This document shows, piece by piece, positions 3,550 through 24,408 of a stretch of DNA of 64,000 nucleotides. Numbering within the stretch: position 1 is the stretch's first letter; each line of letters opens with the position of its first letter. This stretch comes from Methylotenera sp. Its GTDB lineage: Bacteria > Pseudomonadota > Gammaproteobacteria > Burkholderiales > Methylophilaceae. The notes under the pieces are model-generated. The model searched no databases and was not told the DNA's origin. It saw only the letters and a list, made by a program, of their open reading frames with translations. Both the position numbers and the translations under genes were made by a program. The stretch is from positions 12,330-76,329 of the forward strand of contig JBKJUR010000017.1 of assembly GCA_046590165.1 (NCBI GenBank), in the 5' to 3' direction.

Positions 3550-3651
3550 TTGAAAATCTCCAATAACGAATTTAATAAAATCACCTATATTTTTTAATGA
3601 AAATTAATACATGTGAGCGAAATGATGAGAAATAATAATCACATCAAGAAA

Positions 3652-3679: not shown

Positions 3680-3730
3680 TAACTAAGGATATTATATAAT
3701 ATAACCCATTGAAATATATAGGTTATTTGT

Positions 3731-4300
3731 ATGGCGCAAGCAAAATCATTAACTATTGCACAATTTGAGCAGGTACTAGAATCAATAGTCCCAACAAGAT
3801 ATTCAGCCAGAGATAGAGCGATGATTTTACTTAGTTTTTGGTCTGGGATGAGAGTGGGAGAAATTGCAGCTTTAAAAATGAGCGATGTTATTACAATTGA
3901 AGGAATCATCATTGATGAAATTCGATTAAAGCCTGAACAAACTAAAGGAAAAAATTACAGGATGGTTATGATTGGCTTAAGACTATGTAATGAATTAAAT
4001 ATTTACATATCTACGCTAGGTCACGATGAAGTGGATGCTCCGTTATTTGTTTCTCAAAAAACCAAGAAAAAATTTAATCCAAATGCATTGGGACAAAAAT
4101 TCAAGCGTATGTTTGAGAATGCTGGCATTTATGGCGCTACAAGCCATAGTGGGAGGCGCACTTTTATTACCCAATTAGCAAATAAAGGTATAAGTGTCAG
4201 AGTTTTACAGTCTTTGGCAGGGCATAAGAGTATCGTTACGACCCAACTATATATCGATGTTAATGATGAAATGAAAAGAACAGCTGTAAATATGATGTAA
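3731..4300 (+). CDS. Short tyrosine recombinase (catalytic domain only, 189 aa)
   Basis: The catalytic residues appear in the canonical order: R in WSGMRVGEIAAL, H-x-x-R in SHSGRRTF, and H...Y in AGHKSIVTTQLYIDV. There is no N-terminal SAM-like core-binding domain. Confidence 0.8.
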   Translation: MAQAKSLTIAQFEQVLESIVPTRYSARDRAMILLSFWSGMRVGEIAALKMSDVITIEGIIIDEIRLKPEQTKGKNYRMVMIGLRLCNELNIYISTLGHDEVDAPLFVSQKTKKKFNPNALGQKFKRMFENAGIYGATSHSGRRTFITQLANKGISVRVLQSLAGHKSIVTTQLYIDVNDEMKRTAVNMM

Positions 4301-4365
4301 TAAAATTAAAACACTACTCTTAAAGTATTGATTCAAATGTAAACTTATTGAAAAAAATAGATATA

Positions 4366-4383
4366 TACCAATTTTAATTGGTA
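4366..4383. promoter_or_regulatory. 18-bp perfect palindrome TACCAATTTTAATTGGTA upstream of the SIR2 gene
   Basis: Read directly from the sequence. It sits 34 nt upstream of the SIR2 ATG (4417) and is a candidate operator or hairpin. Confidence 0.4.
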
Positions 4384-4416
4384 CTATATTTAATAATAAT
4401 AATTCAGGGGACCCTG

Positions 4417-7337: not shown

Positions 7338-7567
7338 AAGAATTTCTATATATCTTAATAAACTAAGATGCCATTTTAAAAAACATAAAACTAAACAATT
7401 TTGACTAGTAATAAGTAGTTAAATCACTTAATTTAATATGGCTATGAGCGTATTCTTGGCAAAATAAATGCTGATGGAATAGTTATTAATTTAGGACATA
7501 TTAAGCGCGGAATGATTTTTACTAATGAAATATAAAACCGATTTAACAAGAAAATACTAAGAATAAA

Positions 7568-10500
7568 ATGTACAAAAAATTGAAATTTTCCTTAAATATT
7601 GATTTCTCCAACAAACAACCAAAACTACATTTATCTGAATATCAAAATAAATTTATAAACGTCGATGGCACTCTGCTTGAGTTGGCTGAAGCAATTAATG
7701 ATGGAGAGGCTTTTAGTTATCAGTTCCACAATGAAGAGCGCAAAACGGCAAATTTCTTATGCTCGGATTTTCTAGTCGTAGATATCGATGAAGGATGGAT
7801 GATATCAGATGTGCTTAACCATCCATTGGTTAGTAAACACTGTAGTCTGCTTTACACTACTCCCCGACATACTTCAGAAAACCATCGATTTCGATTAGTG
7901 TTTGTACTGCCAAAAACTATTTTCGACTCAAGAGAATTAAAGGCTGCAACTAAATCTTTAGTAAGGCGATTAGGCGGTGATATGTCTGCGACCGATGCAG
8001 CAAGGATGTTTTACGGCTCCATAAATTCATATCAAGAAATTTCAAATAAAGAGCTGTCAGAAGAGCTTTTAGCTGAACTGATAGCCGATGGTTTAGTGAA
8101 TCCTGTCAGTGATTCAAGTATGCATAGACCAGCTCTTAGCATGTCTAATTTGACTATTAAACCAGATTTTGAGATTACCACCGCTGTAAGTGGTGTTCTA
8201 AAGTTTATGGATTTCAAGAAAAAAACTAATGTTTACTGTCCTTTTCATCCCGACAAAAATGCGAGTGCCTTTGTCGGCTTAAACGCTAAATCCATCCCTT
8301 ATCTAGTTTGTTCAACTTGCCAATTTACACGCTGGTTAGAAGGAAATCATAAGGAAGATTTTGATTTCCATAGCTTCGAAAATACTGTAAGTGAATATTT
8401 ACGCACTCCACCTACCAAAATAAATGAATTTGAAACTCCTCTTACACGATTACTTTACGATTCAGTACCGCTAGAAAATAAAGGTATTCACTTTTCAAAT
8501 GATCGTTATTTACAAATCAATAAAATTGAAAATGGTATTACTTTTATCAAGAGTCCTAAAGGTACTGGTAAGACAAATTTTCTGAAAGACTATTTAAAGA
8601 AGATTATCTTTAAAAATTCATCTGTCAATTTAGAGAGTTTTGTAGAAGATATTAATACAGGTAAAGATGCACCAATTTACACTAATAAGAAAGTATTATT
8701 AATCGGACACCGGCAGGCTTTAATAAGTGAAATGTGCAAACGACTAGGTTTAGTTTGTTATCTGGATATCAAAAATACCAAAGACTTAGCTAAAGGTGAT
8801 AATCCAAACTACGGAGTTTGTTTAGACAGTTTGTGCGTGGCACTTGGCGACCAATCTAAAACTAAATGGGATCTCATCATTATTGATGAGTCAGAACAAG
8901 TTTTATCACATTTTTTGTCTGAAACATTAGGTGATAAACGCATAGAGATATTCAATCAATTAAACATACTCATCGGTAATGCTAAAAGGGTTGTTGCATT
9001 AGATGCTGATTTAGGATGGATCACATTCAATACCATTACCAGAATGGCGAAATCTCAATCTGATGCCGTCATACCAATTCAAATACATATAAATAAATGG
9101 GTTGATGGCTCGAAGCCTATATTCATTTATCAAACTTCATCTCAATTGATCGATCATCTAAAACAATCCATTATTGATGGCAAACAAATTTTTGTCTCTT
9201 CTAATTCAAAAAATAAAATTCAATCATTAGAAAAAGCGATTGAAGAGTTGGCAAATAAACTAGGTATTCAAATTCCAATGATCTCCATTACTTCGGAGAA
9301 CTCTAAATCGACTATTAACCAACATTTCATTACAAATATTAAGTCAGAGATAATTAAATATAAAGTCATTTTATCTTCACCGTCATTAGGAACCGGTATT
9401 GATATTACTTTTGATAAAAATTCTGAATTTATAGATTGTGTATATGGGTTGTATGAAAACAGAATCAATACCCATTTAGAAATTGATCAGCAGCTAAGAA
9501 GGGTTAGACATCCAAAAGAAGTGCATGTTTGGGTGTCACCAAGTTTGTATAACTTTGAATCTGAATTTGAAGTTGTTAAAGATGAATACCTTAATAATAA
9601 CTTTCTTCTAAATTTGTATTACCAACAAATCCTTACAAATAACCCCCTTAAGATTTCAAATGAATTTGTAGGTAATTTTTTAATGATGGCTGCTCTAATA
9701 ACAGTTTATCAAAGATCTTCAAAAAATAAGCTTAAGCGCAATTTTCTGGAATACAAACAAGCTGATGGCTGGCAGATTTTAGACGTATTGCAAGATGAAA
9801 TAGCAATGAATGTTGGTAAAGAGTTTTTCAAAAGAGGCGCTAACCTATTGAGCGAAGAAATGATTGCAGATATTTTAGCCTCAGCACCATTAAGAAGAGA
9901 GGAGTATGACGATATTAGTGAGCGAATGGATGCCAACGATAAAGAAGTTTCGAGAAGTGAATATTTTTCATTACAAAGAACCAAGCTGGAATTATTTTAT
10001 CGCCAATCTATCAGCCGTCAGCTTATTAAAGATGATAATAAAACAAAACTTCGTCGGGGCATTTTGGCATACGAAAAGATCACCAATTCTGAAAGGATAA
10101 AATTTATTATTCAGGATAAGACAGCAAACAAAATGAATGTTCATGAACTAGGGCTTCATGAAAAAATCCTTCCTGATAAAAATACTGCTGCTATGTTGCT
10201 GTATCAATTATTTGGCAAAACGCCTATTTTCAGTAATGGCATATTCCTTGAATCAATCGAATTTAAGAAAGATGATTTACAGGATTTCATTAAGCTAGTG
10301 ATTAAAAGAAAGTCTTTTATCGAAAATCATTTGGGTTTGAATGTTCGATCAGATATCGTCATGAAACCAGTTCAATTTTTGGGACAGTTACTAAAAGAGG
10401 TTGGTTTAGGTCATTGGAAAGCAAAATCACATATCGTAAAAGGTATGAAAATTTACATTTATATATTAGATCGAGATAAGCTGAATTCAGTTAAAAAAAC

Positions 10501-10594
10501 TGTTCTTTTAAGAGAGAAAATAGAATCTCAATGGAGTTTTTTCTATGATTTACATCATTTTAAAGATGAAGCAATCACCCATTATATTGACTAA
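7568..10594 (+). CDS. Primase-polymerase (AEP-like) / CHC2 zinc finger / P-loop helicase fusion protein (1008 aa)
   Basis: The N-terminus has FLVVDIDEG (DxD) and TTPRHTSENHRFRLVFVLP, an AEP/PriCT-like pattern. YCPFHPDKNASAF...CSTC is a CHC2 primase-type zinc finger. FIKSPKGTGKTNFL is Walker A and WDLIIIDESEQVLSHF is Walker B. The remainder is a long helical C-terminal region. Confidence 0.7.
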   Translation: MYKKLKFSLNIDFSNKQPKLHLSEYQNKFINVDGTLLELAEAINDGEAFSYQFHNEERKTANFLCSDFLVVDIDEGWMISDVLNHPLVSKHCSLLYTTPRHTSENHRFRLVFVLPKTIFDSRELKAATKSLVRRLGGDMSATDAARMFYGSINSYQEISNKELSEELLAELIADGLVNPVSDSSMHRPALSMSNLTIKPDFEITTAVSGVLKFMDFKKKTNVYCPFHPDKNASAFVGLNAKSIPYLVCSTCQFTRWLEGNHKEDFDFHSFENTVSEYLRTPPTKINEFETPLTRLLYDSVPLENKGIHFSNDRYLQINKIENGITFIKSPKGTGKTNFLKDYLKKIIFKNSSVNLESFVEDINTGKDAPIYTNKKVLLIGHRQALISEMCKRLGLVCYLDIKNTKDLAKGDNPNYGVCLDSLCVALGDQSKTKWDLIIIDESEQVLSHFLSETLGDKRIEIFNQLNILIGNAKRVVALDADLGWITFNTITRMAKSQSDAVIPIQIHINKWVDGSKPIFIYQTSSQLIDHLKQSIIDGKQIFVSSNSKNKIQSLEKAIEELANKLGIQIPMISITSENSKSTINQHFITNIKSEIIKYKVILSSPSLGTGIDITFDKNSEFIDCVYGLYENRINTHLEIDQQLRRVRHPKEVHVWVSPSLYNFESEFEVVKDEYLNNNFLLNLYYQQILTNNPLKISNEFVGNFLMMAALITVYQRSSKNKLKRNFLEYKQADGWQILDVLQDEIAMNVGKEFFKRGANLLSEEMIADILASAPLRREEYDDISERMDANDKEVSRSEYFSLQRTKLELFYRQSISRQLIKDDNKTKLRRGILAYEKITNSERIKFIIQDKTANKMNVHELGLHEKILPDKNTAAMLLYQLFGKTPIFSNGIFLESIEFKKDDLQDFIKLVIKRKSFIENHLGLNVRSDIVMKPVQFLGQLLKEVGLGHWKAKSHIVKGMKIYIYILDRDKLNSVKKTVLLREKIESQWSFFYDLHHFKDEAITHYID

Positions 10595-10617
10595 ATTAAT
10601 ACATTTGTCAGGATAAC

Positions 10618-10710
10618 TGTATATTCCGGTAAAAAGAGCCACTCATTCCACTTCAAACCAGCCAGTGATTCCAGTCCAAAACCGCCAACCATAACTACAC
10701 AAAGCTGCCA
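10618..10710 (+). repeat. Left end of nested element: terminal IR plus three direct subterminal repeats
   Basis: The three repeats are tATTCCGGTAAAAAGAGCC, cATTCCACTTCAAACCAGCC and gATTCCAGTCCAAAACCGCC. The ATTCC motifs start at 10623, 10645 and 10668, giving spacings of 22 and 23 bp. Confidence 0.7.
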
Positions 10711-10973
10711 TTTAAATTTATTACTACTGAAATGCTCGAATGAGTAAAAGGTCCACAAAGCGGGCATTAGTGCATCTGGAAATTGCTAATGAGGCTAATT
10801 GACATATTTTGAAAACCTCGATTGACAGTGATTTCAATATGTTCGCTAACAGACATAATATATGAATGCTGAGTGGTATCCTAGTTATGCGAATTTGGAG
10901 TAGAGTGTACGAAGTAATTCGATTATTTTTTAGAAAAAGATTGATGACACTCAACTACAATGTACCTAGCAAC

Positions 10974-11702
10974 ATGCATAATCATTTGCTTGCAGCCTTC
11001 CGCTTCATGAATTCAATCGCATTTCATCAGGCGTTGAGTTAGTTAAAATGCCGCTGGGTGAGGTACTTTGTGAGTCTAATGAAAAGCTCAATCATGTTTA
11101 CTTTCCGACTACCTCTATTATCTCATTGGTCTATGTATTAGAAAATGGCGCGACAGCGGAAATTGCCAGTATAGGTAATGAAGGTATTTTGGGTGTCACT
11201 TTATTGATGGGTGGTAACACAACAACGAGTTTTGCAGTGGTGCAATCTGCAGTGTATGGGTATCGCCTAAAAGCGTCTTTATTATTGGCAGAATTTAATC
11301 GCAGAGGGCCATTGATGCATCTTCTACTGCGCTATACGCAAGCGCTGATCTCGCAAATGACACAAACAGCCGTTTGTAACCGATATCACACCATAGAACA
11401 GCAACTATGCCGCAGATTATTATTAAGCCTAGATCGCAGCCCTCTTGCTCGCTCACCATGACGCAAGAACTCATTGCCAATATGCTAGGTGTACGCCGCG
11501 AAGGCGTGACAGAGGGGCAGGAAAACTTCAACACCTAGGCCTGATTCAATATAAAAGAGGTCGCATTGATGTGATTGATCGAGTTGGGTTAGAAAAATCG
11601 GTTTGTGAGTGTTATCAGGTGTTCAAAAAAGAGTTAGATAGACTAGTCTCAGATATTCCACAAGGCGACCCGCAACATGTGCTTGGTGAGTCGATTACTT
11701 AA
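10974..11702 (+). pseudogene. Crp/Fnr-family transcriptional regulator, multiply frameshifted
   Basis: MHNHLLAA (10974-) shifts frame to LPLHEFNRISSGVELVKMPLGEVLCESNEKLNHVYFP..., which is ORF 11048-11461. A further piece, MTQELIANMLGVRREGVTE, lies in a third frame. The HTH tail AGKLQHLGLIQYKRGRIDVIDR is in ORF 11445-11702. There are at least three frame breaks. Confidence 0.8.
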
Positions 11703-11728
11703 TCTATCCTTATTTTTACAGGTTTAAT

Positions 11729-12283
11729 ATGCAGCTCTTTAAATTAGAATACAGCAAGTACACCTATTACGCAGACTTTGTATTTTACGCAATAGCTCTG
11801 TTTGTTATAGGGTATTTATTGGCGATGACGACTAGCCCAGCGCAATACCCAGCCATCGTGATTTATGCAACCATCGGTTTAATTGGCTGGACCTTAATAG
11901 AATACGTCATACATCGTTTTGTGTTGCATGGTTTACCGCCATTTAAAGCTTGGCATGCAGAGCATCATCGTCGGCCTACTGCTTTTATCTTTGCCCCTAC
12001 GTTCGTGAGTGCTAGCTTAATTACTTTGTTTATATTTATTCCGGCTTGGCTAATGATTGGTATATGGCCTGCTACTGCACTCACTTTTGGAGTGGTAGTC
12101 GGCTACCTTTTTTATACATTATTACACCATGCTACGCATCATTGGCATGCTAATAATACTTGGTTTAAAGAACGTAAGCGCTGGCACGCTTTGCACCACC
12201 TTTCACACAACCAAATGTTGCAACAGCCCAGCCATTTTGGCGTGACCAATGGTTTTTGGGATAAGGTATTTTCGAGTAATTAA
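11729..12283 (+). CDS. Fatty acid hydroxylase / sterol desaturase superfamily membrane protein
   Basis: Histidine boxes HRFVLH, HAEHHRRP, HHATHHWH and HALHH sit between hydrophobic segments. Confidence 0.75.
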   Translation: MQLFKLEYSKYTYYADFVFYAIALFVIGYLLAMTTSPAQYPAIVIYATIGLIGWTLIEYVIHRFVLHGLPPFKAWHAEHHRRPTAFIFAPTFVSASLITLFIFIPAWLMIGIWPATALTFGVVVGYLFYTLLHHATHHWHANNTWFKERKRWHALHHLSHNQMLQQPSHFGVTNGFWDKVFSSN

Positions 12284-12434
12284 AGTGCTAATGGGTTGCC
12301 TTTAACATGGAAGCAGTTGTACTCATCTGAAACAGCAAGTATGAATAGCTTTGTTTATAGTAATAGTTTAACGAAATAAACAAACACCAGATCATTAACA
12401 ACGTGAATGTAATAAACTCAGAAGGAGTTACTCT

Positions 12435-12620
12435 ATGAAGCAAGTCAAAGTAGGTGATACCGAGTATCAAGCGCACTTAAAGGCTCTGGAAGAACATAAA
12501 GCTTTGGTCGATTTAATGGGTGAGGGCCATGAGAATGTTGACTTGGAAGAGTTGAAACGCTCATTACATGAATTAACACAGACAATCGAGGAGTATTTTA
12601 AAGTGATTGGCATTCCTTAA
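12435..12620 (+). CDS. Small hypothetical protein (61 aa)
   Basis: A strong SD (GAAGGAG) lies 7 nt upstream of the ATG. The product is acidic and helical. A weak hairpin plus T-run follows at 12615-12635. Confidence 0.5.
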   Translation: MKQVKVGDTEYQAHLKALEEHKALVDLMGEGHENVDLEELKRSLHELTQTIEEYFKVIGIP

Positions 12621-12739
12621 TCTTAAGGTTTTTTTATTTAAGGACAAGGTCAAACGAACTTCTGTTGATATTTAGTCATTTCAATATAACTATTAAAGAG
12701 TTTTTATAGTTACATTTTCTATGATAATTTCATGAATAT

Positions 12740-13321
12740 TTACAGATACTTAGATTTCCACAATAATGTAATGATTGCAATTTGCTGTGCAATATTTTCT
12801 GGCGATAACACATAATCAATGCAGCCACTCGCTATAGCACTCTCTGGCATTGCTGGCTCAATCGCAGTATCAAGTTTTTGTGCAATTGTAATGCCGCCAA
12901 TATCTTTAATGCCACATAATGCGGCTGAGCCATCCCCATCGTAGCCAGAAACAATCACGGCAATCAACTTACCATCCCAATAATGAGTGATAGAACTCAG
13001 AAAAACTGTGATGACATCAGGCCAGCCTCTAGGCTTAGATATTGGCTCCAATTGAAACTCACCATTGTGCACATGTAAATCTCGATTGGCTGGAATAATA
13101 AACACTTGATTGGGTTCGATTGCCAAATGATCCGTAATCAGTTTAACGGGCATGTTGGTATATTTAGGAAGAATTTCGTGCAGATGCGTTGGCATTTTTG
13201 TAATGTGATTCACGATGACAATCGCTACGCCTAAATCATCAGGCAGATTATCTAATAAACGAATATAGGCATCTAATCCACCAGCTGAACCGCCAACGCA
13301 GACAATAGGAAAACATTTCAC
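12740..13321 (-). CDS. Stand-alone CheB-type methylesterase/deamidase domain protein (193 aa)
   Basis: The CheB catalytic-domain pattern is present: VCVGGSAGGLDA (Ser), VIVNHITK (His) and VSGYDGDGSAA (Asp). There is no receiver domain. Confidence 0.75.
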   Translation of the reverse strand: MKCFPIVCVGGSAGGLDAYIRLLDNLPDDLGVAIVIVNHITKMPTHLHEILPKYTNMPVKLITDHLAIEPNQVFIIPANRDLHVHNGEFQLEPISKPRGWPDVITVFLSSITHYWDGKLIAVIVSGYDGDGSAALCGIKDIGGITIAQKLDTAIEPAMPESAIASGCIDYVLSPENIAQQIAIITLLWKSKYL

Positions 13322-13385
13322 AGAAACTTATCCAATGGAATTATATGCTGTTTGCCACTACTAAAAAAATTAAATAAAATAATCA

Positions 13386-14033
13386 TTACATCATGGGCAA
13401 TGAAGTCGTCCATTCTTTCATCGCATCTTCGCCGGAACGGTCTATTTTAACTTTATTGTTATCAATAGAAGTTACCCAACTAATTGGGATGTAATGGTGA
13501 TGCCCCATATCGTCTTTATTTAATTTAATAAAGTCGAAACCTTCCATATGGTCAACCGTAGCGAATTGACCATCTTGGTTACATACTACTGCCATCTCAG
13601 GTTTAATTTCAGATAAACTTATACTATGCTTAACACCATAGTAGGTGTGTATTGTATTGGCCCACGCCGGATCTGCCATGTTGGGCCAATGATCTTTATC
13701 AAACCCTGGCGCATCTTCAAGACGCTCCTTCTCAACATTAAGCACAAAGTGCTTATTCTGAACATTAAGCTTTAACGCATGCCATGGCACAGCAAAAAGC
13801 TTTTCACCCATGCCAAGAAAGCCACCAAATGAAACTACTGCATATTCAACTTTACCGCTAGACATGTTGAGCATAATTTCTTTTATATCGCCAAGATGTT
13901 CACCTTTATGATTATAGACATCATTACCATTGAGCGTATCTGCTCCCATTAAACCTGGGCCGGGGCCATCGATGGTATGACTTTTATACATGCCATAGCT
14001 ATCACGTTCTTCGTAATTCATATTAATCTCCAA
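13386..14033 (-). CDS. PRC-barrel domain plus DUF2171-like domain protein
   Basis: GEHLGDIKEIMLNMSSGKVEYAVVSFGGFLGMGEKLFAVPWHAL is a PRC-barrel signature. The C-terminal ...VDHMEGFDFIKLNKDDMGHHHYIPISWV resembles DUF2171. Confidence 0.7.
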   Translation of the reverse strand: MEINMNYEERDSYGMYKSHTIDGPGPGLMGADTLNGNDVYNHKGEHLGDIKEIMLNMSSGKVEYAVVSFGGFLGMGEKLFAVPWHALKLNVQNKHFVLNVEKERLEDAPGFDKDHWPNMADPAWANTIHTYYGVKHSISLSEIKPEMAVVCNQDGQFATVDHMEGFDFIKLNKDDMGHHHYIPISWVTSIDNNKVKIDRSGEDAMKEWTTSLPMM

Positions 14034-14395
14034 TTAACTAATTTCATTAAGTTACCTTATAGCGCTGTAATTAATTAGTAACGCAAAAGATAATTAGATT
14101 AGGCTTAATAGATCCCAAATTCAGTTCGGCAACGAACATAGCAAATGAAATATTTGTCTAGTATTGAATAATATCTTTATAATAAATCACTAGATAATGA
14201 CAATCTGCATTTAAGAATAAATCTGTAAACTTCCCATTTAATTCTTTGGATTTTTATTAGGGCTTTATAAAAGCTAATTTTATAACAACTTAGATCTGTG
14301 CATTTAATAAACTCAATCCAGTGTTTTTGTGCGTTATCGTACATACAAACAATGGGCTTATCTAAATACTACTAATAATTTAAGTAGGAATATTT

Positions 14396-15466
14396 ATGCC
14401 AACTATACGTAAAGGGCAAGCACCAGTCGTATTAGGTCGTGATGAATTTCATCTTGAATTTCATAAGTCATTTCTTGACCCTAGTTTTAAGACTGTTTCT
14501 GATCAACTTTATAAGGTTGAAGAAATAGCTTGGATAAATTATAAAGAAGGTCATAAAGCTCCTTCTACAGAAAAGGCAGGCGCTGCATTTTCTGATCCTA
14601 CTTATGAGCTTTCAGTTGAATGGAAAGCTACTAGAGACCGTCTTATATTGGCAGAAGAAAAGCAGAAAGACCGTGCAACTAAATCACGTGTATTGCTTAT
14701 TTGTGGGTCTGCTCGGAATGACGGCAGCTGTCCGGGTGAGGTTTCAAAAACTTGGCGCTTAACCATGTTAGCTAAAGAAGTATTGGTTGCTGAAGGAATG
14801 GAAGTTGATTTACTTGATTTAAGTTTATTGATTTCAGACTACGATAAACATATTCATCCATGTAAAGGTTGTGTTTCAACGGCAATGCCTTTATGTCATT
14901 GGCCTTGTAGTTGTTACCCCAATCATGGGCAACGTCAAACTAATGATTGGATGGCGGATATCTATGAAAAATGGGTAGCTGCTCACGGCATTATTATTTT
15001 CACTCCTGTTTATTGGTATCAAACACCTAGTGTATTGAAGCTAATGATCGATCGCTTAGTTTGTGCTGATGGCGGAAACCCTGACCCAACTACTACTCTT
15101 GGTAAGAATGCTGAAAAAGCGAAACAAATCGAGCTGGCAGGTTGGTCTTATCCAAAACATCTTGCAGGGCGGGCCTATGGTGTGGTAGTGCATGGGGATG
15201 TCGCTGGTATCGAAGGGGTAAGGCGTGGATTATCTGACTGGTTAGACTGGATGGGGCTTATAGATGCTGGTGCAAAGTCTAAACTTGACCGTTTTATTGG
15301 TTATTACGAATCTTATGCCAAAAGTCATGAAGCACTTGACCGTGATCATGCCGTACAAGAGGAAGTTCGTAACGTTGCTAAATCAGTAGGTGTTGCGGTA
15401 GATAAGATACGAAAAGGTAACTTAGAGCCATCAGACTTTGCATTGCAACAGCCTCGGCCAAAGTAA
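14396..15466 (+). CDS. Flavodoxin-like (NADPH-dependent FMN reductase fold) protein with Cys-rich Fe-S-type insert
   Basis: VLLICGSARNDGSCPGE is typical of flavodoxin-like reductases. The cysteine cluster is HPCKGCVSTAMPLCHWPCSCYP. Confidence 0.6.
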   Translation: MPTIRKGQAPVVLGRDEFHLEFHKSFLDPSFKTVSDQLYKVEEIAWINYKEGHKAPSTEKAGAAFSDPTYELSVEWKATRDRLILAEEKQKDRATKSRVLLICGSARNDGSCPGEVSKTWRLTMLAKEVLVAEGMEVDLLDLSLLISDYDKHIHPCKGCVSTAMPLCHWPCSCYPNHGQRQTNDWMADIYEKWVAAHGIIIFTPVYWYQTPSVLKLMIDRLVCADGGNPDPTTTLGKNAEKAKQIELAGWSYPKHLAGRAYGVVVHGDVAGIEGVRRGLSDWLDWMGLIDAGAKSKLDRFIGYYESYAKSHEALDRDHAVQEEVRNVAKSVGVAVDKIRKGNLEPSDFALQQPRPK

Positions 15467-15579
15467 AACTTGCAACACAATAAAAAAACGCTTATTTCGA
15501 TGCTTGCACTATTATTTACCAAATTTAAGGCATAAGCTTTTGGCTTAACTAGACAAAAATAATATGCTTATTAACGGAA

Positions 15580-15807
15580 ATGGTGATTACTATGAATAAT
15601 GATGTTTTCAATATGGATATTCGTAAGTACTTAAAAATGGTAGGAATTAATTCACAGCACGAGATTGAGCAAGCGGTAGCAAAGGCTATTGCTAAGGGTC
15701 TGATCAAGGGTGACGAAACATTGTCTGCGAAAATGACGCTTACTATCGGCCAAGTGAATCTGAATGTCAGTGTTGATGGGATGATTGGTTTGGAGTTAGC
15801 AGCTTAA
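15580..15807 (+). CDS. Small hypothetical protein (75 aa; true start may be 15592)
   Basis: An ORF between two redox genes on the same strand. I recognise no motif. Confidence 0.4.
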   Translation: MVITMNNDVFNMDIRKYLKMVGINSQHEIEQAVAKAIAKGLIKGDETLSAKMTLTIGQVNLNVSVDGMIGLELAA

Positions 15808-16000
15808 TTCTGGATAGTCTTTTGTTTACCTGAGTATTGAAGCAGGTTCTACTTAATTAGTTTCTATTTAAGAATTATTTTATTCTCCAAATAATTACAA
15901 CTCTAAGCGGACTCTTTTTAAATACAGGTGTTAGAGAGTTGCTGTAAAAGATGTATATGGTAGCTAAGATTGTTAATCCTGTTTTCTTAAGGAGTTAGCC

Positions 16001-17206
16001 ATGATAAAGCAAGTTTACGATTACGTGATTGTGGGCGGCGGGTTGGCGGGCTCATCGGCGATAGAGGGTATCCGGGAACTAGATGCGGTGGGAAATATAC
16101 TCATGATTTGCGCAGAAAAGCATCTGCCCTATGACCGTCCACCACTTTCCAAGCAATTGTGGTCTGGCAAACAAAAGGTCGAAGACATCTTCCTGCAAGA
16201 TAAGACATTTTATGACCAACATAAAGCAACACTATTACTGGGCGTGAAAGTAGTAAGGCTTGACCCCAGCGAAAAGACAATAACTACCACCAACGGCGAG
16301 AACTATGGCTTCGTCAAGCTGTTGCTAGCCACAGGTAGCATGGCGCGGCATTTATCTATTCCTGGCAGCAATCTCGAAGGTATCTGCTATTTCCGCAGCA
16401 TAGACGACTATCTACATACTCGAAGCGTAGCTACGGCAGGAAAATCTGCCGTGGTGATCGGTGGGGGATTTATCGGTTCGGAGCTTACTGCTGCGCTCAG
16501 TATCAACAAATTGAATGTCACCATGATTTTCCCAGATACAACTCTTTGCAGTCATGTATTTCCGGACTATTTGGGGCAGGCCATGCTTCGAAAATTCCAA
16601 GAGCGGGGGATTAGTGTTCTGATATCCGACAAGCCTGACTCCTTCAGCAGGAACGGCGATAAATTCATTACACACACAGAGAATGGTAAAACGATAGAAT
16701 CGGACCTGGTCATCGTTGGCGTAGGCGTTACCCCAGAAATGGAACTGGCCAAAAGTGGCGGTTTGCAAGTGGGTAATGGCATTGTAGTGAACGAGTTTCT
16801 TGAAACTTCAAACCCAGCTATTTTTGCTGCAGGAGATAATACTTTCTTCCCCTACTATGCACTGGGACAGCAGATGCGTTTGGAGCACTGGGATAACTCA
16901 CTTAACCAGGGAAAATTGGCAGGGCGCAACATGGCTGGCGCTCATGAACCATTTACCTATCAGCCGTATTTTTTCTCGGATCTTTTCGAGTTTGGCTATG
17001 AAGCTACCGGCGAGGTCGACTCGCGCCTCGAGACTTTCGCTGATTGGCAAAAGGAAAATGATACCGGCGTCATCTACTATCTGCGCGATGGGAAGGTCAG
17101 GGGCGTGATGATGTGTAATGTATGGGATAAGATTGAGGTGGCACGCACACTAATCAAGAAGGCAGAAACTGTAAAGCCAGAAATGCTGCGTGGCCTGATA
17201 CGTTAA
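16001..17206 (+). CDS. FAD-dependent pyridine nucleotide-disulfide oxidoreductase (AIF/ferredoxin-reductase-like)
   Basis: Dinucleotide-binding motifs YVIVGGGLAGSSA and AVVIGGGFIGSEL, plus AAGD near the C-terminal third. Confidence 0.85.
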   Translation: MIKQVYDYVIVGGGLAGSSAIEGIRELDAVGNILMICAEKHLPYDRPPLSKQLWSGKQKVEDIFLQDKTFYDQHKATLLLGVKVVRLDPSEKTITTTNGENYGFVKLLLATGSMARHLSIPGSNLEGICYFRSIDDYLHTRSVATAGKSAVVIGGGFIGSELTAALSINKLNVTMIFPDTTLCSHVFPDYLGQAMLRKFQERGISVLISDKPDSFSRNGDKFITHTENGKTIESDLVIVGVGVTPEMELAKSGGLQVGNGIVVNEFLETSNPAIFAAGDNTFFPYYALGQQMRLEHWDNSLNQGKLAGRNMAGAHEPFTYQPYFFSDLFEFGYEATGEVDSRLETFADWQKENDTGVIYYLRDGKVRGVMMCNVWDKIEVARTLIKKAETVKPEMLRGLIR

Positions 17207-17371
17207 GGCCTAAATTTTTACTTTGAGCAGCTAATAGTTAAATCAAAAGATTTGTGCGTATGCTCAAATCCGTTTTTTGATCGGGAGGGCTAGCACATAA
17301 TTGCGATGACGCGTCACAGCATTTAGTCCAAAAGAAAAGCATTCAAATCCGTGTCGCCTAGGAGCACATCT

Positions 17372-17944
17372 TTAACCAAAGTACGCACCAAGGTTGCTAA
17401 GCGCATCTGCAATTTCTTTCGGTGACAGCACATAGTCAACATAGCCTAAAGCCTGAGCATTACGAGACATATCCTCTACTTCGGCCGACATGTCCTGGGC
17501 AAAGGTTGTTCCTCCCTTTGTCTTGATTGACCTGCATCCCTCACTACCATCGCTATGGTACCCAGAGAGGATAATGCCGATGGCATGTTCCCCCATCGCC
17601 TCTGCTAAGGAACTAAAGAACAAATCTATTTGTACGTTTCTCCTAGAACGCGGGGAGACGACCTTGAAGTTACCTCTTTCTATCTGAAGATCTGCATTCC
17701 CTGGTATGACGTAGATATGATTTGCCTGGATCGGCATCCCTGTCGAAGCCAGCAATGCAGGCATTGTCGTGTAACGCGACAGAATTTTAGCTAACTGACT
17801 ATTGGCTTCAGGATGAATGTGAGAAATAACGACAAAGGCCATGACTGTATTGGATGGCAGAGACTCAAAGAGCGCCTTATAGGCATTAAGAGCGCCAGCC
17901 GAGCCACCAATGCCGACAATGTAGTTCGGGAGGAATTTAGTCAT
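17372..17944 (-). CDS. Stand-alone CheB-type methylesterase/deamidase domain protein (190 aa)
   Basis: IVGIGGSAGALNA (Ser), VVISHIHP (His) and LSGYHSDGSEG (Asp). It starts 35 nt downstream of the kaiC stop on the same strand. Confidence 0.75.
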   Translation of the reverse strand: MTKFLPNYIVGIGGSAGALNAYKALFESLPSNTVMAFVVISHIHPEANSQLAKILSRYTTMPALLASTGMPIQANHIYVIPGNADLQIERGNFKVVSPRSRRNVQIDLFFSSLAEAMGEHAIGIILSGYHSDGSEGCRSIKTKGGTTFAQDMSAEVEDMSRNAQALGYVDYVLSPKEIADALSNLGAYFG

Positions 17945-17979
17945 ACACTAAGCCAGCTTTTAACATACACTTTTTTTGA

Positions 17980-19494
17980 TTAATTTTGACGCACAGTAAT
18001 ACTTTTTCCAACCTTTTGTTTCTGATGGGGTCCAGCAGTCGCGTTAGAATCCATGGTGACCAACTTCAATCCATCATCACTCAATACAAATTTGTGGACA
18101 TCGCTGGAGTGGCCCATGCCGCGAGACTTCACGATGTAAATGCCACGAATGCGTCTTTTCCCCTCATTTTCTTCTAATTCCCGAACGACGATCCAGGTGT
18201 CAATCAAAGACGAGACGCCGATTTCGCCGCTCGTGTCATTTTGTGCGCTCGAAGAAACAAGGCTGGTAAAAAAGCTGGTGATAGCCCTCGATTTTAGGGC
18301 ATCGATCATGCGCGTCAGCATCGATTGAATTTCAAGTTCATTGCCCTGACCAATAAGACTAGTCAAGGGATCGATGATGACCGCTTTGGGTTTGAAATCC
18401 GCAATCATCTTGTATAAATCGAGTAAATGCATTTCCAGGCCAAAAAAGGAAGGCCGGGTAGACACAATCTTCAAAAGCCCTTTTTTAATTAAAGGATCTA
18501 AATCAAATCCAATAGAACGCATGTTTTGTATGAGTTGCCCTGACGATTCCTCATATGACAAGAAAAGACACCGTTCTCCACGTTTACACGATTGCACAGC
18601 GAATGCCGCCGCGAGGCTTGTTTTACCGGTGCCTGCAGTACCTGAAGCGAGAACTGTGCTGCCTCTTGTATAGCCGCCTCCCTGAAACAATTTGTCCAAC
18701 GAGGCAATACCCGTCGGAACCCTCTCTGAGGTGCCAGGATGATCGAGTCCTGCTGAAGTGATGGGAATGACTGACAGCCCGTCTCGATCTATGACGAAGG
18801 GATATTCATTTGTGCCGTGATTTGAACCGCGATACTTGATGATACGCATTCTACGGGTGGAAATTTGTTCTCTAACTCTGTTGTCCACGAGAATGATGCA
18901 ATCAGAAATGTACTCCTCCAGGCCATGACGGGTATAAGAGCCTTGTCTGAGCTCGCCGGTAATGAGTGCCGTCACTTGTTTATCCTTAAGCCACCGGAAC
19001 AGTCTTTTTATCTCCAAGCGAAGAATGCCGGCATCGGTGACGCCTGCAAAGAGTGATTCAATGGAATCCAAAACAACGCGTTTGGCGCCAATGCTATCAA
19101 TGGCCAATTCCAAACGTATGAACAGTCCTTCAAGATTAAATTCGCCTTGCGATTGAATATCTCCACGCTCCAACAGGACATAGTCGAGCACAATCTTTTT
19201 TTGCGTAACAAGTTCTTTCAGATCAAAATTGAGAGAAATCACGTCATTATAAAGTTCATCTTCTGTCTCTTCGAAAGACAAGAAGACACCTGGCTCGTTG
19301 TACTTAGTCGCTCCGTGGATTAAAAAATCAATCCCCAGGAGGGTTTTTCCAGTGCCGGTACTGCCACACAATAAAGTGATTCTATTTCTTGGAATTCCGC
19401 CTTCTGTAATTTCGTCAAAGCCCTGGATGCCGGTGAGGCATTTCTGGAAATTATTATCATCAGAGGCAATTTTTGTCTTAGGAGTTTTAGGCAT
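17980..19494 (-). CDS. kaiC: KaiC-family double RecA-like ATPase
   Basis: 504 aa with two tandem domains. Each has a Walker A (LLCGSTGTGKT; LASGTAGTGKT) followed by the EE motif (SFEETEDEL; LSYEESSGQL). Confidence 0.85.
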   Translation of the reverse strand: MPKTPKTKIASDDNNFQKCLTGIQGFDEITEGGIPRNRITLLCGSTGTGKTLLGIDFLIHGATKYNEPGVFLSFEETEDELYNDVISLNFDLKELVTQKKIVLDYVLLERGDIQSQGEFNLEGLFIRLELAIDSIGAKRVVLDSIESLFAGVTDAGILRLEIKRLFRWLKDKQVTALITGELRQGSYTRHGLEEYISDCIILVDNRVREQISTRRMRIIKYRGSNHGTNEYPFVIDRDGLSVIPITSAGLDHPGTSERVPTGIASLDKLFQGGGYTRGSTVLASGTAGTGKTSLAAAFAVQSCKRGERCLFLSYEESSGQLIQNMRSIGFDLDPLIKKGLLKIVSTRPSFFGLEMHLLDLYKMIADFKPKAVIIDPLTSLIGQGNELEIQSMLTRMIDALKSRAITSFFTSLVSSSAQNDTSGEIGVSSLIDTWIVVRELEENEGKRRIRGIYIVKSRGMGHSSDVHKFVLSDDGLKLVTMDSNATAGPHQKQKVGKSITVRQN

Positions 19495-19899
19495 ACACTA
19501 AATCCTTATTTAAGTTGGTCATTCAGCGCTATTCCGAATCAGCCTGAAATCGACAACGTCATCCGAGAAAAGAAATAAGGTGGGCATATTGTCGTTCACG
19601 GTAATGGAATTCTGTGCAGGTCACGTCGACAGTTGCAATCCTTGGCTATGTTGAGTTTGGCACGCTGCGTAGCGCCCAGTCGGTTCGTCAGCACACATAT
19701 AGTAGCGAGTTGTGAACAGTCTATTTTTGCAAAAGTACAATTACTTCAAAATTTTGTCTATATCACTATGTAGGCTAGCGTACAGATGGCAGGAAAGTAT
19801 TGGCATAGTCTTAATATTGCTCAGTTAAAGGCATAACCAATGGTTATGCTGTGACGACCGAAAAAACCTCAAATTAAATATTTAGAAAGACAATTAATA

Positions 19900-20376
19900 A
19901 TGAATCAATACACCCTTACTGCACCCCGCATTGATAAGAGTGCTACGCTCTGGGCCGCGATTATTGCTGGCGCTGTCTTTATGATGCTGGAAATGATGAT
20001 GGTACCTGTTTTTATGGGTGGGAGCCCATGGGGGCCACCGCGTATGATCGCGGCGATTGGCATGGGTAAAAGTGTGTTGCCCCCGCCAGCTACATTTGAT
20101 GCTGGCATCATGGGGATGGCGATGTTGATTCACTACGGACTATCGATACTCCTTGCGTTCTTGTTCGCGTTTATAGCTCGCGGACGCACCATTGGTATGG
20201 CGACGATGTTAGGTGCAGTATTCGGTCTGGTTGTGTATTTGGTCAATTTCTATGGAATGACGGCGGTATTTCCCTGGTTTGCCATGGCCCGGGGTTGGGT
20301 TGGAATTTTTGCGCATATTGTATATGGCGGTGTACTAGGCTTGGTCTACGCATCAATTGCTCGAAGACAGACGTGA
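19900..20376 (+). CDS. Hydrophobic membrane protein (158 aa, about 4 TM segments)
   Basis: The hydrophobic profile supports this strand. The overlapping minus-strand ORFs (19894-20133, 19905-20111) look like shadows. Confidence 0.55.
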   Translation: MNQYTLTAPRIDKSATLWAAIIAGAVFMMLEMMMVPVFMGGSPWGPPRMIAAIGMGKSVLPPPATFDAGIMGMAMLIHYGLSILLAFLFAFIARGRTIGMATMLGAVFGLVVYLVNFYGMTAVFPWFAMARGWVGIFAHIVYGGVLGLVYASIARRQT

Positions 20377-20553
20377 GAGCCTAATTATTATTAATTGGAC
20401 CAGTGAATCGATATCATGATATTCAAATTGTTTGATTAGCTATTATATCGATCAATAGTATCAAATATTGACTGAACTCTGGGAAGACCAGTGTTCATTA
20501 GACATTTACCTTGGAGAGCACCCATTCTCCATGTGCTTTGAAGGAGATATTAA

Positions 20554-21309
20554 ATGACCTGGGATCTTAGCTGGATAGCTTTCGTTATTGCCTTTGCTAT
20601 CGTATTTGCTTCTTCCGCAATCCGTATCTTTCGTGAGTATGAGCGCGGTGTCGTTTTCACTTTGGGTCGATTCTCGAAGATCAAGGGCCCTGGACTGGTC
20701 ATCATCATCCCAATAATCCAACAAGTGGTAAGAGTGGATTTGCGCACTAGGGTACTAGAGGTGCCCACTCAAGATGTAATATCACGTGATAACGTATCAG
20801 TAAAAGTTAGTGCAGTCGTTTATTTGCGAGTGATTGATGCAGAAAAAGCGATCATTCAGGTAGTAGATTATCTCAACGCAACAAGCCAACTGGCGCAGAC
20901 CATGTTACGTTCAGTGCTTGGCAAACACTTGTTAGATGATATGCTGGCAGAAAGAGAGAAATTGAACCTAGACATTCAGCAGGCACTGGATGCACAAACC
21001 GATAGTTGGGGCATCAAAGTATCAAACGTCGAGATTAAACAAGTTGACCTAACTGAATCCATGATACGGGCCATCGCAAGGCAAGCAGAAGCCGAGCGCG
21101 AGCGCCGCGCCAAAGTGATTCATGCCGAAGGCGAACTGCAAGCCGCTGAGAAGTTGTTCCAAGCCGCCAAAATATTGGCACAAGAACCACAAGCGATTCA
21201 GCTTCGTTACTTAGAAACGCTTACAGTGATTGGCGCAGACAAAAATACCACGGTCATCTTCCCGTTACCAATGGACCTAGTCAATGCTTTCTTGGGAAAA
21301 GCAAAGTGA
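20554..21309 (+). CDS. SPFH/band-7 (stomatin-like, slipin) protein
   Basis: An N-terminal TM segment, then [32 protein letters not shown]...[14 protein letters not shown]...[17 protein letters not shown], a typical SPFH pattern. Confidence 0.88.
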
Positions 21310-22119
21310 AATTAATGCAGGTGTTTAACTTACAAGACTGAAGTCAAGTAGCAAATTTCTTAATTTAGTAGTTGTAAGGCACAGAGATGTAAACACCTTT
21401 TCTGCAACAAAAAATATAGCCTTCGGTAATTAGTCAGCAGTTCACTTAGACTAGTTTATTGTAGGGTTATACCAGCAAAATTGACTGTTGAAGAATTTGC
21501 CCTGAACTGTTGAGAAGATATGCTTTGTGAACAAAAGCATCACTCATTCAATTAACGTTAATAATTTAAATAATTACCCTGATCTAAAATCTGGTTCAAC
21601 TCCCATGACTTCAAACTAGATCATATTATTTAGGCCTACGAAACCTTTGGGCATGCCGCCAAAACTAGTGCGCTTAAGGTCATTATTGAAGTTCTCATTT
21701 TTTGCCTCATTTGAAGATCTAAAAATGGCTCGAAATGTTAGTCCGGTTCTGGCGCTAAAGGTTCTGCCGCGATATTAACCGGAAAATCAAAATTCGTTGT
21801 GCCAATTACTGCAACAACAGACAACAAACTTTCTGGTAATGGTCAATATGCCTATGACGTCAATACTAAGATTGTCGTATCCATTACCTTTGCTGATAAA
21901 ACGACTGAGCAAGCACGACTCACCCATTCGACTGCGTCACCATTAGGAGATATGGCTCAAATGGAAGGAATGAAAGATATGAAATAGTCTTTCAGCGAAT
22001 AGGCTAATGACTCGACCAAGTCTATGTTCGCTAACGAACAGCTTGAATCTTAGTTTTGGTTGTAAGCTGATTTAGAGTTCGCTTTATTTTTGCCTAACTT
22101 GAATAACTTTTATAAATGA

Positions 22120-22527
22120 ATGGAATTTAAAATGACCAATATTTTATATATTAAAAGAAGCCTTTCAGCAAGCTTGATATTGTCAGTGTTAGCTTTACCT
22201 GTTTGGACTTTAGCTCAATCTGCTCCAATGGCAGACGAATCCCACATGGGCTCTTCAATGGATATGAGCCATTCAATGGGTAGCATGGATGAAAAAATGA
22301 AAGCAATGCCCATGTCTGGCGATGTAGATTATGACTTTGCAATGATGATGCGCATACATCATCAGGGTGCATTAGACATGGCAAAATCCGAGTTAAATAA
22401 GGGCAAAAACCCTGAAATGCGCATGATGGCTAAAAAGATTATCGCAGCACAGAAAAAAGAAATTGCGCAGTTTGATAAATGGATTGCAAAACATAAAAAG
22501 ATGGAAGCGATGCCAACAACAAAATAA
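22120..22527 (+). CDS. DUF305-family periplasmic protein (metal homeostasis-associated)
   Basis: A signal peptide, a Met/His-rich stretch, and DYDFAMMMRIHHQGALDMAK...MRMMAKKIIAAQKKEIAQFDKWI, matching the DUF305 pattern. Confidence 0.75.
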   Translation: MEFKMTNILYIKRSLSASLILSVLALPVWTLAQSAPMADESHMGSSMDMSHSMGSMDEKMKAMPMSGDVDYDFAMMMRIHHQGALDMAKSELNKGKNPEMRMMAKKIIAAQKKEIAQFDKWIAKHKKMEAMPTTK

Positions 22528-22698
22528 TGCCTGACACTCAGGTCGCTTGCCAAATCGTACAAAAAGTGTCAATTGAGACCCGTAATTAATTGTAAGTTTT
22601 CAGTAAACTCAAAATCAACCTAAATTGTAGTTAAATGTTATATCTTCGGATGAGTGACAATCTCATCCGATTTTTATTGATAAATAAGGAAGTATCAA

Positions 22699-23038
22699 AT
22701 GAAAAAAATGATGTTAGCAATACTCGTATTTCCCCCTTTTAAGCACCGTTACTGTTTCAAGTTATGCAATGGGTAAGATGGTGGAAATGGCCATGCCTGC
22801 AAAAGCTACAGCCAGCCATACAACAATTAGAGGTCAGGGCAAGGTCGTTCTAATTAACCAAGAAAAAACGATGGTCACCCTTAAACATGACCCTATTGCA
22901 TCCATACAATGACCAGCAATGACAATGGCCTTTAAGGTTAAAAACAGTGCTGTTTTAGCTAAAACGAAAGTGGGTGATAAAGTGAATTTTACTTTGGTGC
23001 CTGATGGAAAAAACTATATGGTGACCAGTATTAAATAA
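22699..23038 (+). pseudogene. cusF: CusF-like periplasmic copper-binding protein, inactivated
   Basis: The signal peptide frame (MKKMMLAILVF) breaks at the C5 run and continues in the +1 frame (PLLSTVTVSSYAMGK...). An in-frame TGA at 22910-22912 replaces the conserved Trp of the H-x...-W-P-A-M-T-M motif (...HDPIASIQ*PAMTMAFKV). Confidence 0.8.
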
Positions 23039-23134
23039 ATGTATTGACCCTTGGATTAACCCTAAGTAGATTCCATAAATGGCTGCTTAGGGCCCAATTT
23101 ACCAGTTCGCTTATTATTAAAATCAAACTATCAC

Positions 23135-23182
23135 TGACAGCTTTTCGTAATTAGGGGTGGCGGCTTTGGAGTGGAATATACA
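23135..23182 (-). repeat. Right end of nested element: terminal IR plus a single subterminal repeat
   Basis: The reverse complement reads TGTATATTCCACTCCAAAGCCGCCACCCCTAATTACGAAAAGCTGTCA. Its first 10 nt are identical to the left terminus (10618-10627). From the ATTCC onward it matches about 34 of 44 positions of the left end's third repeat and adjoining sequence (10667-10710). Confidence 0.7.
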
Positions 23183-23318
23183 GGATAACTAATTTTTAGT
23201 TATAAAATATTATAAATATTAGTTAGGTTATCCTTTTTTACGAAAAAATTTATATTGTCTATTTCAGTCGGGTGGTGAGTTTATGTATAAATAGATATAT
23301 AAACGTGAGATTGATAAG

Positions 23319-23774
23319 ATGGATAAAGCAGTATTGATAGCCAAATTAATTGAATGGACTGCTAGTGGTGAGAAAGGCTTCTTTGTAACTTTAAATGCAA
23401 AAACAAATGACAAAATTTGTTTTGAGCAGGATTTAAGTAAATTTGCACATAAGCTAAATGACTATTGTTATGGTCGCGTTTATAAGCGAAAAGAAAAACA
23501 ATTGAAATTAATGGCTGGAATTGAAATTGGCCAATTAAATCAGATGCTGCATGCTCATCTTTTCATTCAGCACGATGACCAAATGAAAAGAACCTATTCA
23601 GAAGTAAATTCACATATTAGAAAACAGTGGTATGGATTAATCGGTTCAAAAAATTCAAATGGCAATATGGTGGATGTTGCACCCTTAGGTAATGTGCCAA
23701 CACGTATTTCCTATATGGTAAAAGATACAGTTTATTTAAAGCGTAATGACTTTTTAAATTTAATTTGGTTATAA
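23319..23774 (+). CDS. HUH-motif endonuclease-like protein (RCR Rep / relaxase-like, 151 aa)
   Basis: Three motifs occur in canonical order: GFFVTLNAK (motif I, FxTLx), MLHAHLFIQ (HUH) and RISYMVKD (YxxK). Confidence 0.55.
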   Translation: MDKAVLIAKLIEWTASGEKGFFVTLNAKTNDKICFEQDLSKFAHKLNDYCYGRVYKRKEKQLKLMAGIEIGQLNQMLHAHLFIQHDDQMKRTYSEVNSHIRKQWYGLIGSKNSNGNMVDVAPLGNVPTRISYMVKDTVYLKRNDFLNLIWL

Positions 23775-24408
23775 ATAGTAATACTTGAAGCCTGAGGCGA
23801 ACTCGGCAATTAATATGATGAAATACTTTTTGTATGGTAGATAACCCCATAGGTATTGGGATATCTAAAATATTAATAATTAGAGTATTGTTTCAATCAA
23901 AACAGAAACAACAGATCAACATTACATACCTAAGCAATCAAACTTGTTTGATTTTTAAATCTGGTCATTTATAGATACATTTTACAGCTTTAAGTCTCCA
24001 CTGAATATTGTTCAAAGTAGCACCCCAAACTGATTCAAGAAATCCATCTATAATTATGCAATAAAGCCATTCAGAATAATTACTTTAGGTTATGAACATT
24101 AGCAAAAAAGTCCCCGTAGCTGACACGCACACCTGAATGTCTCAAAATTGTCACGTTAATTTTTATTGACTGACTGCTTTTTCCTGCGAATTCAACTGGT
24201 CGATGCAATACATTGGTTAAATATCACGGTAACTAAGGGAAAATGGCAATAGAGTCAGAAAAAAATGACTGATGATTTCGTTTGAGAAATGATGAAATGG
24301 TAAAGAGGGTCTTTTTTTCATGCTTCACTTTACTTCACAGTTCCATATAAGCTAAACAAAGTCGAAGTTAAGCTGACAATGCCAATTTAATATTATGGGC
24401 ATATAGAT

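Follow-up and report, generated by a model that had tools for sequence, protein, structure and literature searches.

A 64,000-nucleotide stretch of a Methylotenera sp. contig (JBKJUR010000017.1, GenBank assembly GCA_046590165.1; hereafter the window) is predicted to contain a non-autonomous derivative of an insertion sequence (IS) of the IS21 family. The element occupies positions 10618..23182 on the + strand (12,565 bp, 41.4% GC), has neither istA nor istB, and encloses about 15 passenger genes with no transposase among them, a layout otherwise seen in mobile insertion cassettes (MICs). We put the probability of this reading at about 0.8. The evidence that carries it is the structure of the ends, their relatedness to ends found on ISs with both istA and istB, a 7-bp target-site duplication, an intact related site, and the absence of both transposition genes. 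A first-pass annotation of the same DNA, made from the letters alone, had proposed a transposase-less cargo element of the DDE type, and that proposal is supported by the end structure, by its likeness to IS21 ends and by the empty site described here.

The termini are TGTATATTCC at 10618-10627 and its reverse complement GGAATATACA at 23173-23182. They have the 5'-TG...CA-3' form of the IS21 family, with TGTAT... from 10618 and ...ATACA ending at 23182. The heptamer GGATAAC, read directly in the sequence, abuts both ends as a target-site duplication (left copy 10611..10617, right copy 23183..23189) and is present as a single copy at the homologous site in a related island. Perfect 10-bp inverted-repeat termini flanked by GGATAAC had already been noted, and we read them at the same coordinates. 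As in MICs, then, genes without a transposase are enclosed by IS-type inverted ends and a target duplication. A third exact copy of TGTATATTCC, on the minus strand at 6152-6161, was dismissed as a chance occurrence; no repeats stand behind it.

Inside each TGTAT tip lies a series of phased repeats, predicted from their sequence to be of the IstA-binding type. The left terminal inverted repeat (IRL type, 10618..10713, + strand) comprises the tip (10618-22) followed by L1 (10623-44), L2 (10645-67), L3 (10668-90) and the weaker L4 (10691-713). The first three are ATTCC-initiated units that start at 10623, 10645 and 10668, spaced by 22 and 23 bp; L4 reads ATAACTACACAAAGCTGCCATTT, agrees with 12 of 16 consensus positions, and brings the left spacings to 22, 23 and 23 bp. 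The right terminal inverted repeat (IRR type, 23132..23182, - strand) has its tip at 23178-82, then R1 (23155-77), which agrees at 16/16 consensus positions, and the half-degenerate R2 (23132-54), which agrees at 8/16. Counted inward from the right-end ATTCC, R1-R2 and L3-L4 agree at 35 of 44 aligned positions. The first-pass annotation had counted about 34 of 44 between the right end and the third left repeat with its adjoining sequence, and had described three left direct repeats at 22-23-bp spacing and one on the right, all of which are present. The motif ATTCCANTNCAAANCNGCC, with two mismatches or fewer allowed, occurs at exactly three places in the 64 kb, all of them in the element ends; the expectation from shuffled sequence is 0.23, and none of 100 shuffles reached three. 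In IS21 ends, direct repeats 23 bp apart are the recognition sites of IstA, and at least two are expected per end (PMC10122671). The element has four on the left, and on the right one perfect repeat and one with 8/16 positions.

The ends were assigned to a family by their relatives. A pattern taken from the left end, TGTANATTCCNNTNNAAAN{9,10}ATTCCNNTNNAAA, which describes the tip and two phased repeats with 22 specified bases, recovered 8 loci in GTDB species genomes and 35 loci in JGI metagenomes. These loci extend into further phased repeats and have in common the ..GCCAC half, which the pattern leaves unspecified. Directly inside many of these ends, where there is enough inner sequence (L018, L019, L024, L029, L039, L043), are genes for a protein of about 500 aa and another of about 250 aa. 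Pfam identifies the pair as Mu-transpos_C_2 and IstB_IS21, a tblastn survey agrees, and the proteins exceed the NCBIfam IS21 cutoffs (IstA 251-300 bits against 160; IstB 272 bits against 200). When an nhmmer profile was made from the ends of istAB-carrying ISs alone, leaving out the window, it matched the window at 10618-10664 (E=3.6e-8), at 23182-23155 (E=7e-4) and at 10667-10710 (E=9.5e-4), with no other match below E ~1 over the 64 kb. The right-end match is not circular, because the right end did not fit the scan pattern. Both the pattern scans and the profile therefore find the ends homologous to those of ISs encoding IstA and IstB. The IS whose repeats most resemble those of the element (L029, ATTCCAGTCCAAAGTTGCCAC) encodes an IstA 56% identical to the ISPsy14/ISPre4-type IstA. 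IS21 had been one of five candidate families in the first-pass annotation, and the choice can now be narrowed to IS21 and, within it, to the clade with ISPsy14 and ISS12.

No transposition gene accompanies these ends. Pfam searches detected no transposase, ATPase helper, resolvase or integrase among the open reading frames (ORFs) of the element, and tblastn with four IstA/IstB proteins detected no istA or istB in the window, only P-loop noise in kaiC, and these searches revealed no transposase elsewhere in the window either; the earlier statement that none of the roughly 15 genes is a transposase agrees with both searches. The element consequently lacks the IstA and IstB between its ends that would make it an autonomous IS21 member. 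An Rfam search of the window returned no match.

The element separates two replication genes of a host island. Upstream is a gene for a CyRepA1-family replication protein (7568..10594, + strand; 1008 aa; 331 bits with NCBIfam NF042913, whose cutoff is 200), whose stop codon lies 16 bp upstream of the left target duplication, and downstream is a gene for a 151-aa REP_ORF2-G2P-like (HUH-type) protein (23319..23774, + strand; weak Pfam match). A CyRepA1 homologue (P0003, 63% identical) is encoded on a 98.7-kb contig (L063) of a Pseudomonadota metagenome-assembled genome (MAG), where positions 3024-18631 form a homologous island in the identical chromosomal slot with different defence and cargo genes. 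The order there is chromosomal amt, P-II, Gcw_chp and BMFP genes, the island boundary, DUF6641, a 189-aa integrase-like gene, defence genes, CyRepA1, the HUH gene, cargo, a large serine recombinase and a chromosomal comM-like gene (ChlI/Mg-chelatase family). The spacer between the CyRepA1 and HUH genes is 148 bp long in L063, against 152 bp in the window after removal of 10618-23189. It reads ...tgcaGGATAACTAAaatttt..., with one caGGATAACTAA, a single GGATAAC and no IS21-type repeats; the corresponding empty junction of the window, with the element removed, is TTTGTCAGGATAACTAATTTTTAG. The homologous island thus has the site without the element, as expected of a MIC inserted as one unit, and the check proposed in the first-pass annotation, the primase-helicase gene directly preceding the HUH gene with a single GGATAAC, gave a positive result. 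A second relative (L064) likewise has a short spacer after CyRepA1.

The target itself is situated within an inverted repeat that separates the two replication genes and is conserved, both islands having GATAACTAA...TTAGTTATC; the reconstituted site corresponds to window positions 10608-10617 plus 23183-23236, and its L063 counterpart to 11880-11940. Because of the duplication, the target copy beside the HUH gene is intact. In the window there are, in addition, an 8-bp hairpin without mismatches, ATAACTAA-ttt-TTAGTTAT, and several TTAGTTA motifs, and the region looks origin-like.

The length of the duplication also fits the proposed clade. Four ISPsy14/ISPre4-type copies on finished Pseudomonas plasmids (L058, L059, L061, L062) are flanked by duplications of 7, 8, 8 and 7 bp. 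They have TG[CG]GG tips and ATTCCA repeats every 23 bp, with more repeats on the left than on the right (five and three, respectively, in the ISPsy14 copy L058). ISS12, a related IS21-family IS of P. putida S12, is reported to duplicate about 7 bp on transposition, and the same strain carries ISPsy14-like variants (PMC5658596). Length varies within the IS21 family, and IS5376 makes 5-bp duplications (PMC10122671, PMC11208146). The 7 bp had been taken in the first-pass annotation as a pointer to Tn552, an argument that falls away, as 7-8 bp is normal for the ISPsy14 clade of IS21.

Several other loci from the scans are of separate interest. A multi-copy IS21-type family with ends TGTAAATTCCGGT[AT]GAAAACCGGAGGG accounts for most matches in a few metagenomes of the Ga0123353 and Ga0082212 series; flanks differ from copy to copy, and the IstA of the family is only about 25% identical to the L029 type. 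Its members are L023, L027, L028, L030-L032, L034, L035, L037, L038, L041, L042, L044, L047-L049, L051 and L054-L056 (and L020). Loci of the L020 type were set aside as a TGTAA-tip family that forms a more distant IS21 group, as was L022, in which IstA was not detectable. In viral contigs the two-repeat pattern gave only four matches, all attributed to chance and all without a TG tip. Three loci, L053 (2990-10897), L025 and L016 (1592-8000), have IS21-type ends with two or three phased repeats. No istA or istB was found within 3-8 kb inside these ends, the opposite end lying outside the DNA examined, and they are solo ends or else belong to additional cargo elements that lack a transposase. 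Behind the L053 end come EEP-nuclease, TIR-like and metallo-beta-lactamase-fold genes, and a type IV secretion system coupling protein is encoded next to this end. Two short derivatives of related ISs were also recovered: a miniature of about 100 bp in which a left and a right end are joined head to head (L040, 2417-2515), and an internal-deletion derivative of about 830 bp that keeps only fragments of istA and istB (L026, 330-1159, the same as L046).

We propose that the element entered the spacer between the CyRepA1 and HUH genes by IS21-type transposition. A tetramer of IstA, a DDE transposase, would bind the repeats, pair both ends and expose the 3'-CA ends; IstB, an AAA+ helper, would present the target DNA; and strand transfer with a 7-bp stagger, followed by repair, would duplicate GGATAAC. 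We infer that IstA and IstB performed the insertion, and further movement would require that the cell also harbour an autonomous relative whose ends match. Loss of istAB may have preceded insertion, which would imply mobilisation in trans, or may have followed it by deletion in place.

A number of observations weigh against this interpretation or limit it. Taken alone, the 7-bp direct repeat and the 10-bp inverted repeat are only weakly significant: of 100 block-shuffled windows, 12 contained one or more instances of a 7-bp direct repeat abutting a perfect 10-bp inverted repeat. It is therefore the phased repeats, the resemblance to IS21 ends and the empty site that carry the argument. That empty site was read in a homologous island with only 63% protein identity, as opposed to an isogenic strain. 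Full-length relatives with the TGTAT tip, all in MAG or metagenome contigs, showed no target duplications, and the short derivatives L026 and L040 had no clean duplication either; the 7-8-bp value therefore comes from ISPsy14-type relatives with TG[CG]GG tips. The missing duplications probably reflect contigs assembled chimerically across multi-copy ISs (L019 and L024 agree in their left flank and differ in the right one), and duplication-based inference from such contigs needs caution. Only one copy of the element was found. Public contigs with its flanks or first cargo gene all represent the same occupied locus, and look-ups of the exact CyRepA1, HUH and first cargo proteins, made in search of alternative sites, returned that locus only; the exact DUF305 and KaiC sequences had no record in the protein look-up, and megablast of the whole element against plasmids gave no match. 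No cognate autonomous IS was identified; of the source genome the search covered the window, which contains no IS21. Neither of the two signs of trans-mobilisation of a MIC, copies at different sites or a cognate IS, was thus found, and the 12.6-kb unit as such is only putatively mobile. Integration of IS5376 in vitro requires two complete repeats per end (PMC10122671), and present-day transposition competence is doubtful because R2 is half degenerate. In addition, two broken cargo genes (cusF and a Crp-like regulator) suggest decay.

The alternative that deserves most attention, although we consider it distinctly the less likely course, is that an autonomous IRL-istA-istB-cargo-IRR element inserted here and later lost istAB through a deletion just inside the left end, so that the transposase-less unit never moved. 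A single deletion would yield the identical final structure, only one copy is known, and the broken cargo genes would indicate an old, decaying insertion. Internal-deletion derivatives do exist: L026/L046 keeps IstA residues 225-273 and IstB residues 176-252. A passenger gene located downstream of istB has also been reported for IS21 modules (PMC13139386). Within the element, however, no istA or istB remnant was found at an E limit of 10, the first 330 bp inside the left end not having been tested for an istA leader, and no observation positively favours deletion in place over movement in trans.

The remaining alternatives are far less probable. TG...CA termini, unequal numbers of repeats of about 22 bp and a 7-bp duplication could also describe another family with multi-repeat ends and an ATPase helper (Tn552, Tn7-like, Tn402/Tn5053 or Mu), an assignment to which we give very little weight. 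Tn552 has inverted repeats of about 116 bp recognised by the p480 transposase, plus an ATPase and a resolvase, and makes 6-7-bp duplications according to the first-pass annotation; Tn7, Mu and Tn402 make 5-bp duplications. Yet wherever coding sequence beside matching ends could be identified it was IstA and IstB, never a TnsB-, TniA- or MuA-type set. Tn7, Mu and Tn402 were rejected on this ground and on the 7-bp duplication here; their transposase and ATPase genes are also absent. A duplication of 7-8 bp is normal for the ISPsy14 clade; 7 bp is also compatible with Tn552, with which the IS21 match of the ends made a sequence comparison unnecessary. It is about as improbable that two unrelated solo IS21 ends, or a repetitive extragenic palindromic (REP)-like repeat, bracket the block with a chance 7-bp identity, so that no single insertion took place. 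A duplication with a 10-bp inverted repeat does arise in about 12% of shuffled windows, and ends without istAB inside are known at L016, L025 and L053. The two ends of the element, however, are correctly inverted, one of left and one of right type, share 35/44 positions beyond the tip and abut the identical 7-mer exactly, and the related island L063 has the uninterrupted site. The first-pass annotation had allowed that the end repeats might prove to be a REP-like family scattered through the genome; within the 64-kb window the motif occurs nowhere else. Least probable of all is that a site-specific recombinase moved the block as an integrative element, GGATAAC serving as the crossover core. 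The block is flanked by a short direct repeat, and genes for a large serine recombinase and a short tyrosine-recombinase-like protein are present in the host island, but these belong to the enclosing island and are found in L063 without the block, the block itself encodes no recombinase, and att sites do not have IS21-type inverted ends that begin precisely at the repeat.

Among known systems, the non-autonomous IS21 derivative is closest to ISs of the ISPsy14/ISS12/ISPre4 type. Like the element, these have a 5-nt TG tip, ATTCC repeats every 22-23 bp with more copies at the left, 3'-CA ends and 7-8-bp duplications (PMC5658596). They differ in being autonomous and 2.6 kb long, with IstA and IstB, whereas the element is 12.6 kb and has neither. 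The tips also differ (TGTAT in the element, TG[CG]GG in the ISPsy14-type ISs), as does the 3' half of the repeat (..AAA..GCCAC against ..ATCCGGACAC). IS5376 and IS21, the family members studied by structural and biochemical means, in which direct repeats 23 bp apart are recognised by an IstA tetramer and IstB acts as an AAA+ target-presenting helper (PMC10122671, PMC11208146), share the spacing of the repeats. IS5376 makes a 5-bp duplication instead of 7 and requires two complete repeats per end in vitro, in contrast to the degenerate R2 of the element. On an istA-istB-blaOXA-1054 platform, IS21 functions are likewise linked to accessory genes, with metal-resistance operons nearby; that platform keeps istA and istB and has no defined IRL...IRR unit, the reverse of the element (PMC13139386).

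The element is best filed as an IS21-derived MIC, MICs themselves being a kind already known. MIC231 (from IS231) and the qnrS2 mic similarly combine inverted ends and a duplication with passengers and no transposase, and by the concept cited in PMC4444841 and PMC9330008 depend for movement on a transposase supplied in trans. The element differs in its IS21-type multi-repeat ends and its roughly 15 genes. The known MICs derive from other IS families, are small, and carry one or a few genes. Class 1 integrons derived from Tn402 that have lost the tni genes are defective transposons that keep multi-repeat ends and cargo; Tn402 itself has TniA and TniB, 25-bp inverted repeats and 5-bp duplications, and belongs to a different family, so that the likeness is an analogy only. 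Literature searches found no description of an IS21-derived miniature inverted-repeat transposable element or MIC, or of a large transposase-less IS21 cassette.

IS21-type ends can thus bracket a 12.6-kb passenger block of about 15 genes without a transposase, a layout that IS annotation pipelines keyed to transposases miss. If such cassettes are common and active, elements with IstA and IstB would count as vehicles for genes in addition to disrupting them. For now, the element is one more non-autonomous transposon, probably decaying, with a mechanism that does not depart from that of its known family. It is conceivable, though on present evidence rather unlikely, that large transposase-less cassettes with IS21 ends are a recurrent and overlooked class and that IstA/IstB acting in trans move stress, metal and defence modules between islands and plasmids. 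In that event the ends at L016, L025 and L053, of which L053 neighbours defence-like genes, would be further examples, and the extra left repeats, with L3-L4 matching R1-R2, would reflect the building or tuning of ends.

The cargo, made up of stress, redox and metal genes, was annotated by Pfam on every ORF of 10618-23182. Next to the left end is a Crp/Fnr-like regulator gene (11048..11702, + strand) that is split by a frameshift around 11445-11461 into ORFs of 137 and 85 aa, with a cNMP-binding domain at 11048-11461 and a weak HTH_Crp_2 match at 11445-11702 in a different reading frame; the identical two ORFs are called in independent metagenome contigs. It is followed by genes for a fatty-acid hydroxylase family protein (11729..12283, + strand; PF04116, E=2e-17), a stand-alone CheB-methylesterase-domain protein (12740-13321, - strand) and a PRC-barrel/DUF2171 protein (13386-14033, - strand). 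Redox cargo comprises an FMN_red-like protein (14396-15466, + strand), a DUF6494 protein (15580-15807, + strand) and a Pyr_redox_2 flavoprotein (16001-17206, + strand). Beyond the KaiC region are a DUF1440-like membrane protein (19900-20376, + strand), an SPFH/Band 7 protein (20554-21309, + strand) and two metal-related genes, one for a DUF305 protein (22120-22527, + strand) and, last, cusF (22769-23038, + strand), whose translation is interrupted by an in-frame stop at 22910-22912, within the segment ...HDPIASIQ*PAMTMAF..., where CusF proteins presumably have a conserved Trp.

The KaiC-like double ATPase (17980-19494, - strand) and the CheB-methylesterase-only gene downstream of it (17372-17944, - strand), one of two CheB-only genes in the element, form a pair that recurs elsewhere. 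As a two-gene module, kaiC and a gene for a stand-alone CheB-methylesterase-domain protein (about 190 aa) are conserved, and the module also occurs at other loci (L065-L071). KaiC identity is 89-96% in the closest homologues and at least 80% across the matches listed, and the neighbourhoods are unrelated; some of the pairs adjoin heavy-metal ATPases. In a search for the cargo elsewhere, the contexts of the KaiC homologues had no IS21 ends and the remaining cargo was not syntenic, and we therefore regard the cargo as a mosaic.

In base composition the element (41.4% GC) stands between the island flanks (32.2% and 34.8%) and the chromosome (43.8%), and nested insertion accounts for the GC-richer block within a low-GC island. 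The first-pass annotation was right that the element is GC-richer than its host island, but its figure of 58% for the kaiC region was not borne out: kaiC measures 45.3%, and the top 300-bp window, near 19.9 kb, reaches 53%.

The host island extends over about 2900-29354 and includes DUF6641, a 189-aa integrase-like gene, a SIR2+HerA defence pair, the CyRepA1 and HUH-like genes, lipid-synthesis genes and a large serine recombinase of 600 aa. The start codon of this recombinase and the TTG start of comM/ChlI are 2 bp apart. A contig from GCA_025450695.1 (L006, 859-1088) matches window positions 23226-24082 and then diverges, and thus an island variant downstream of the HUH gene exists in another sample.

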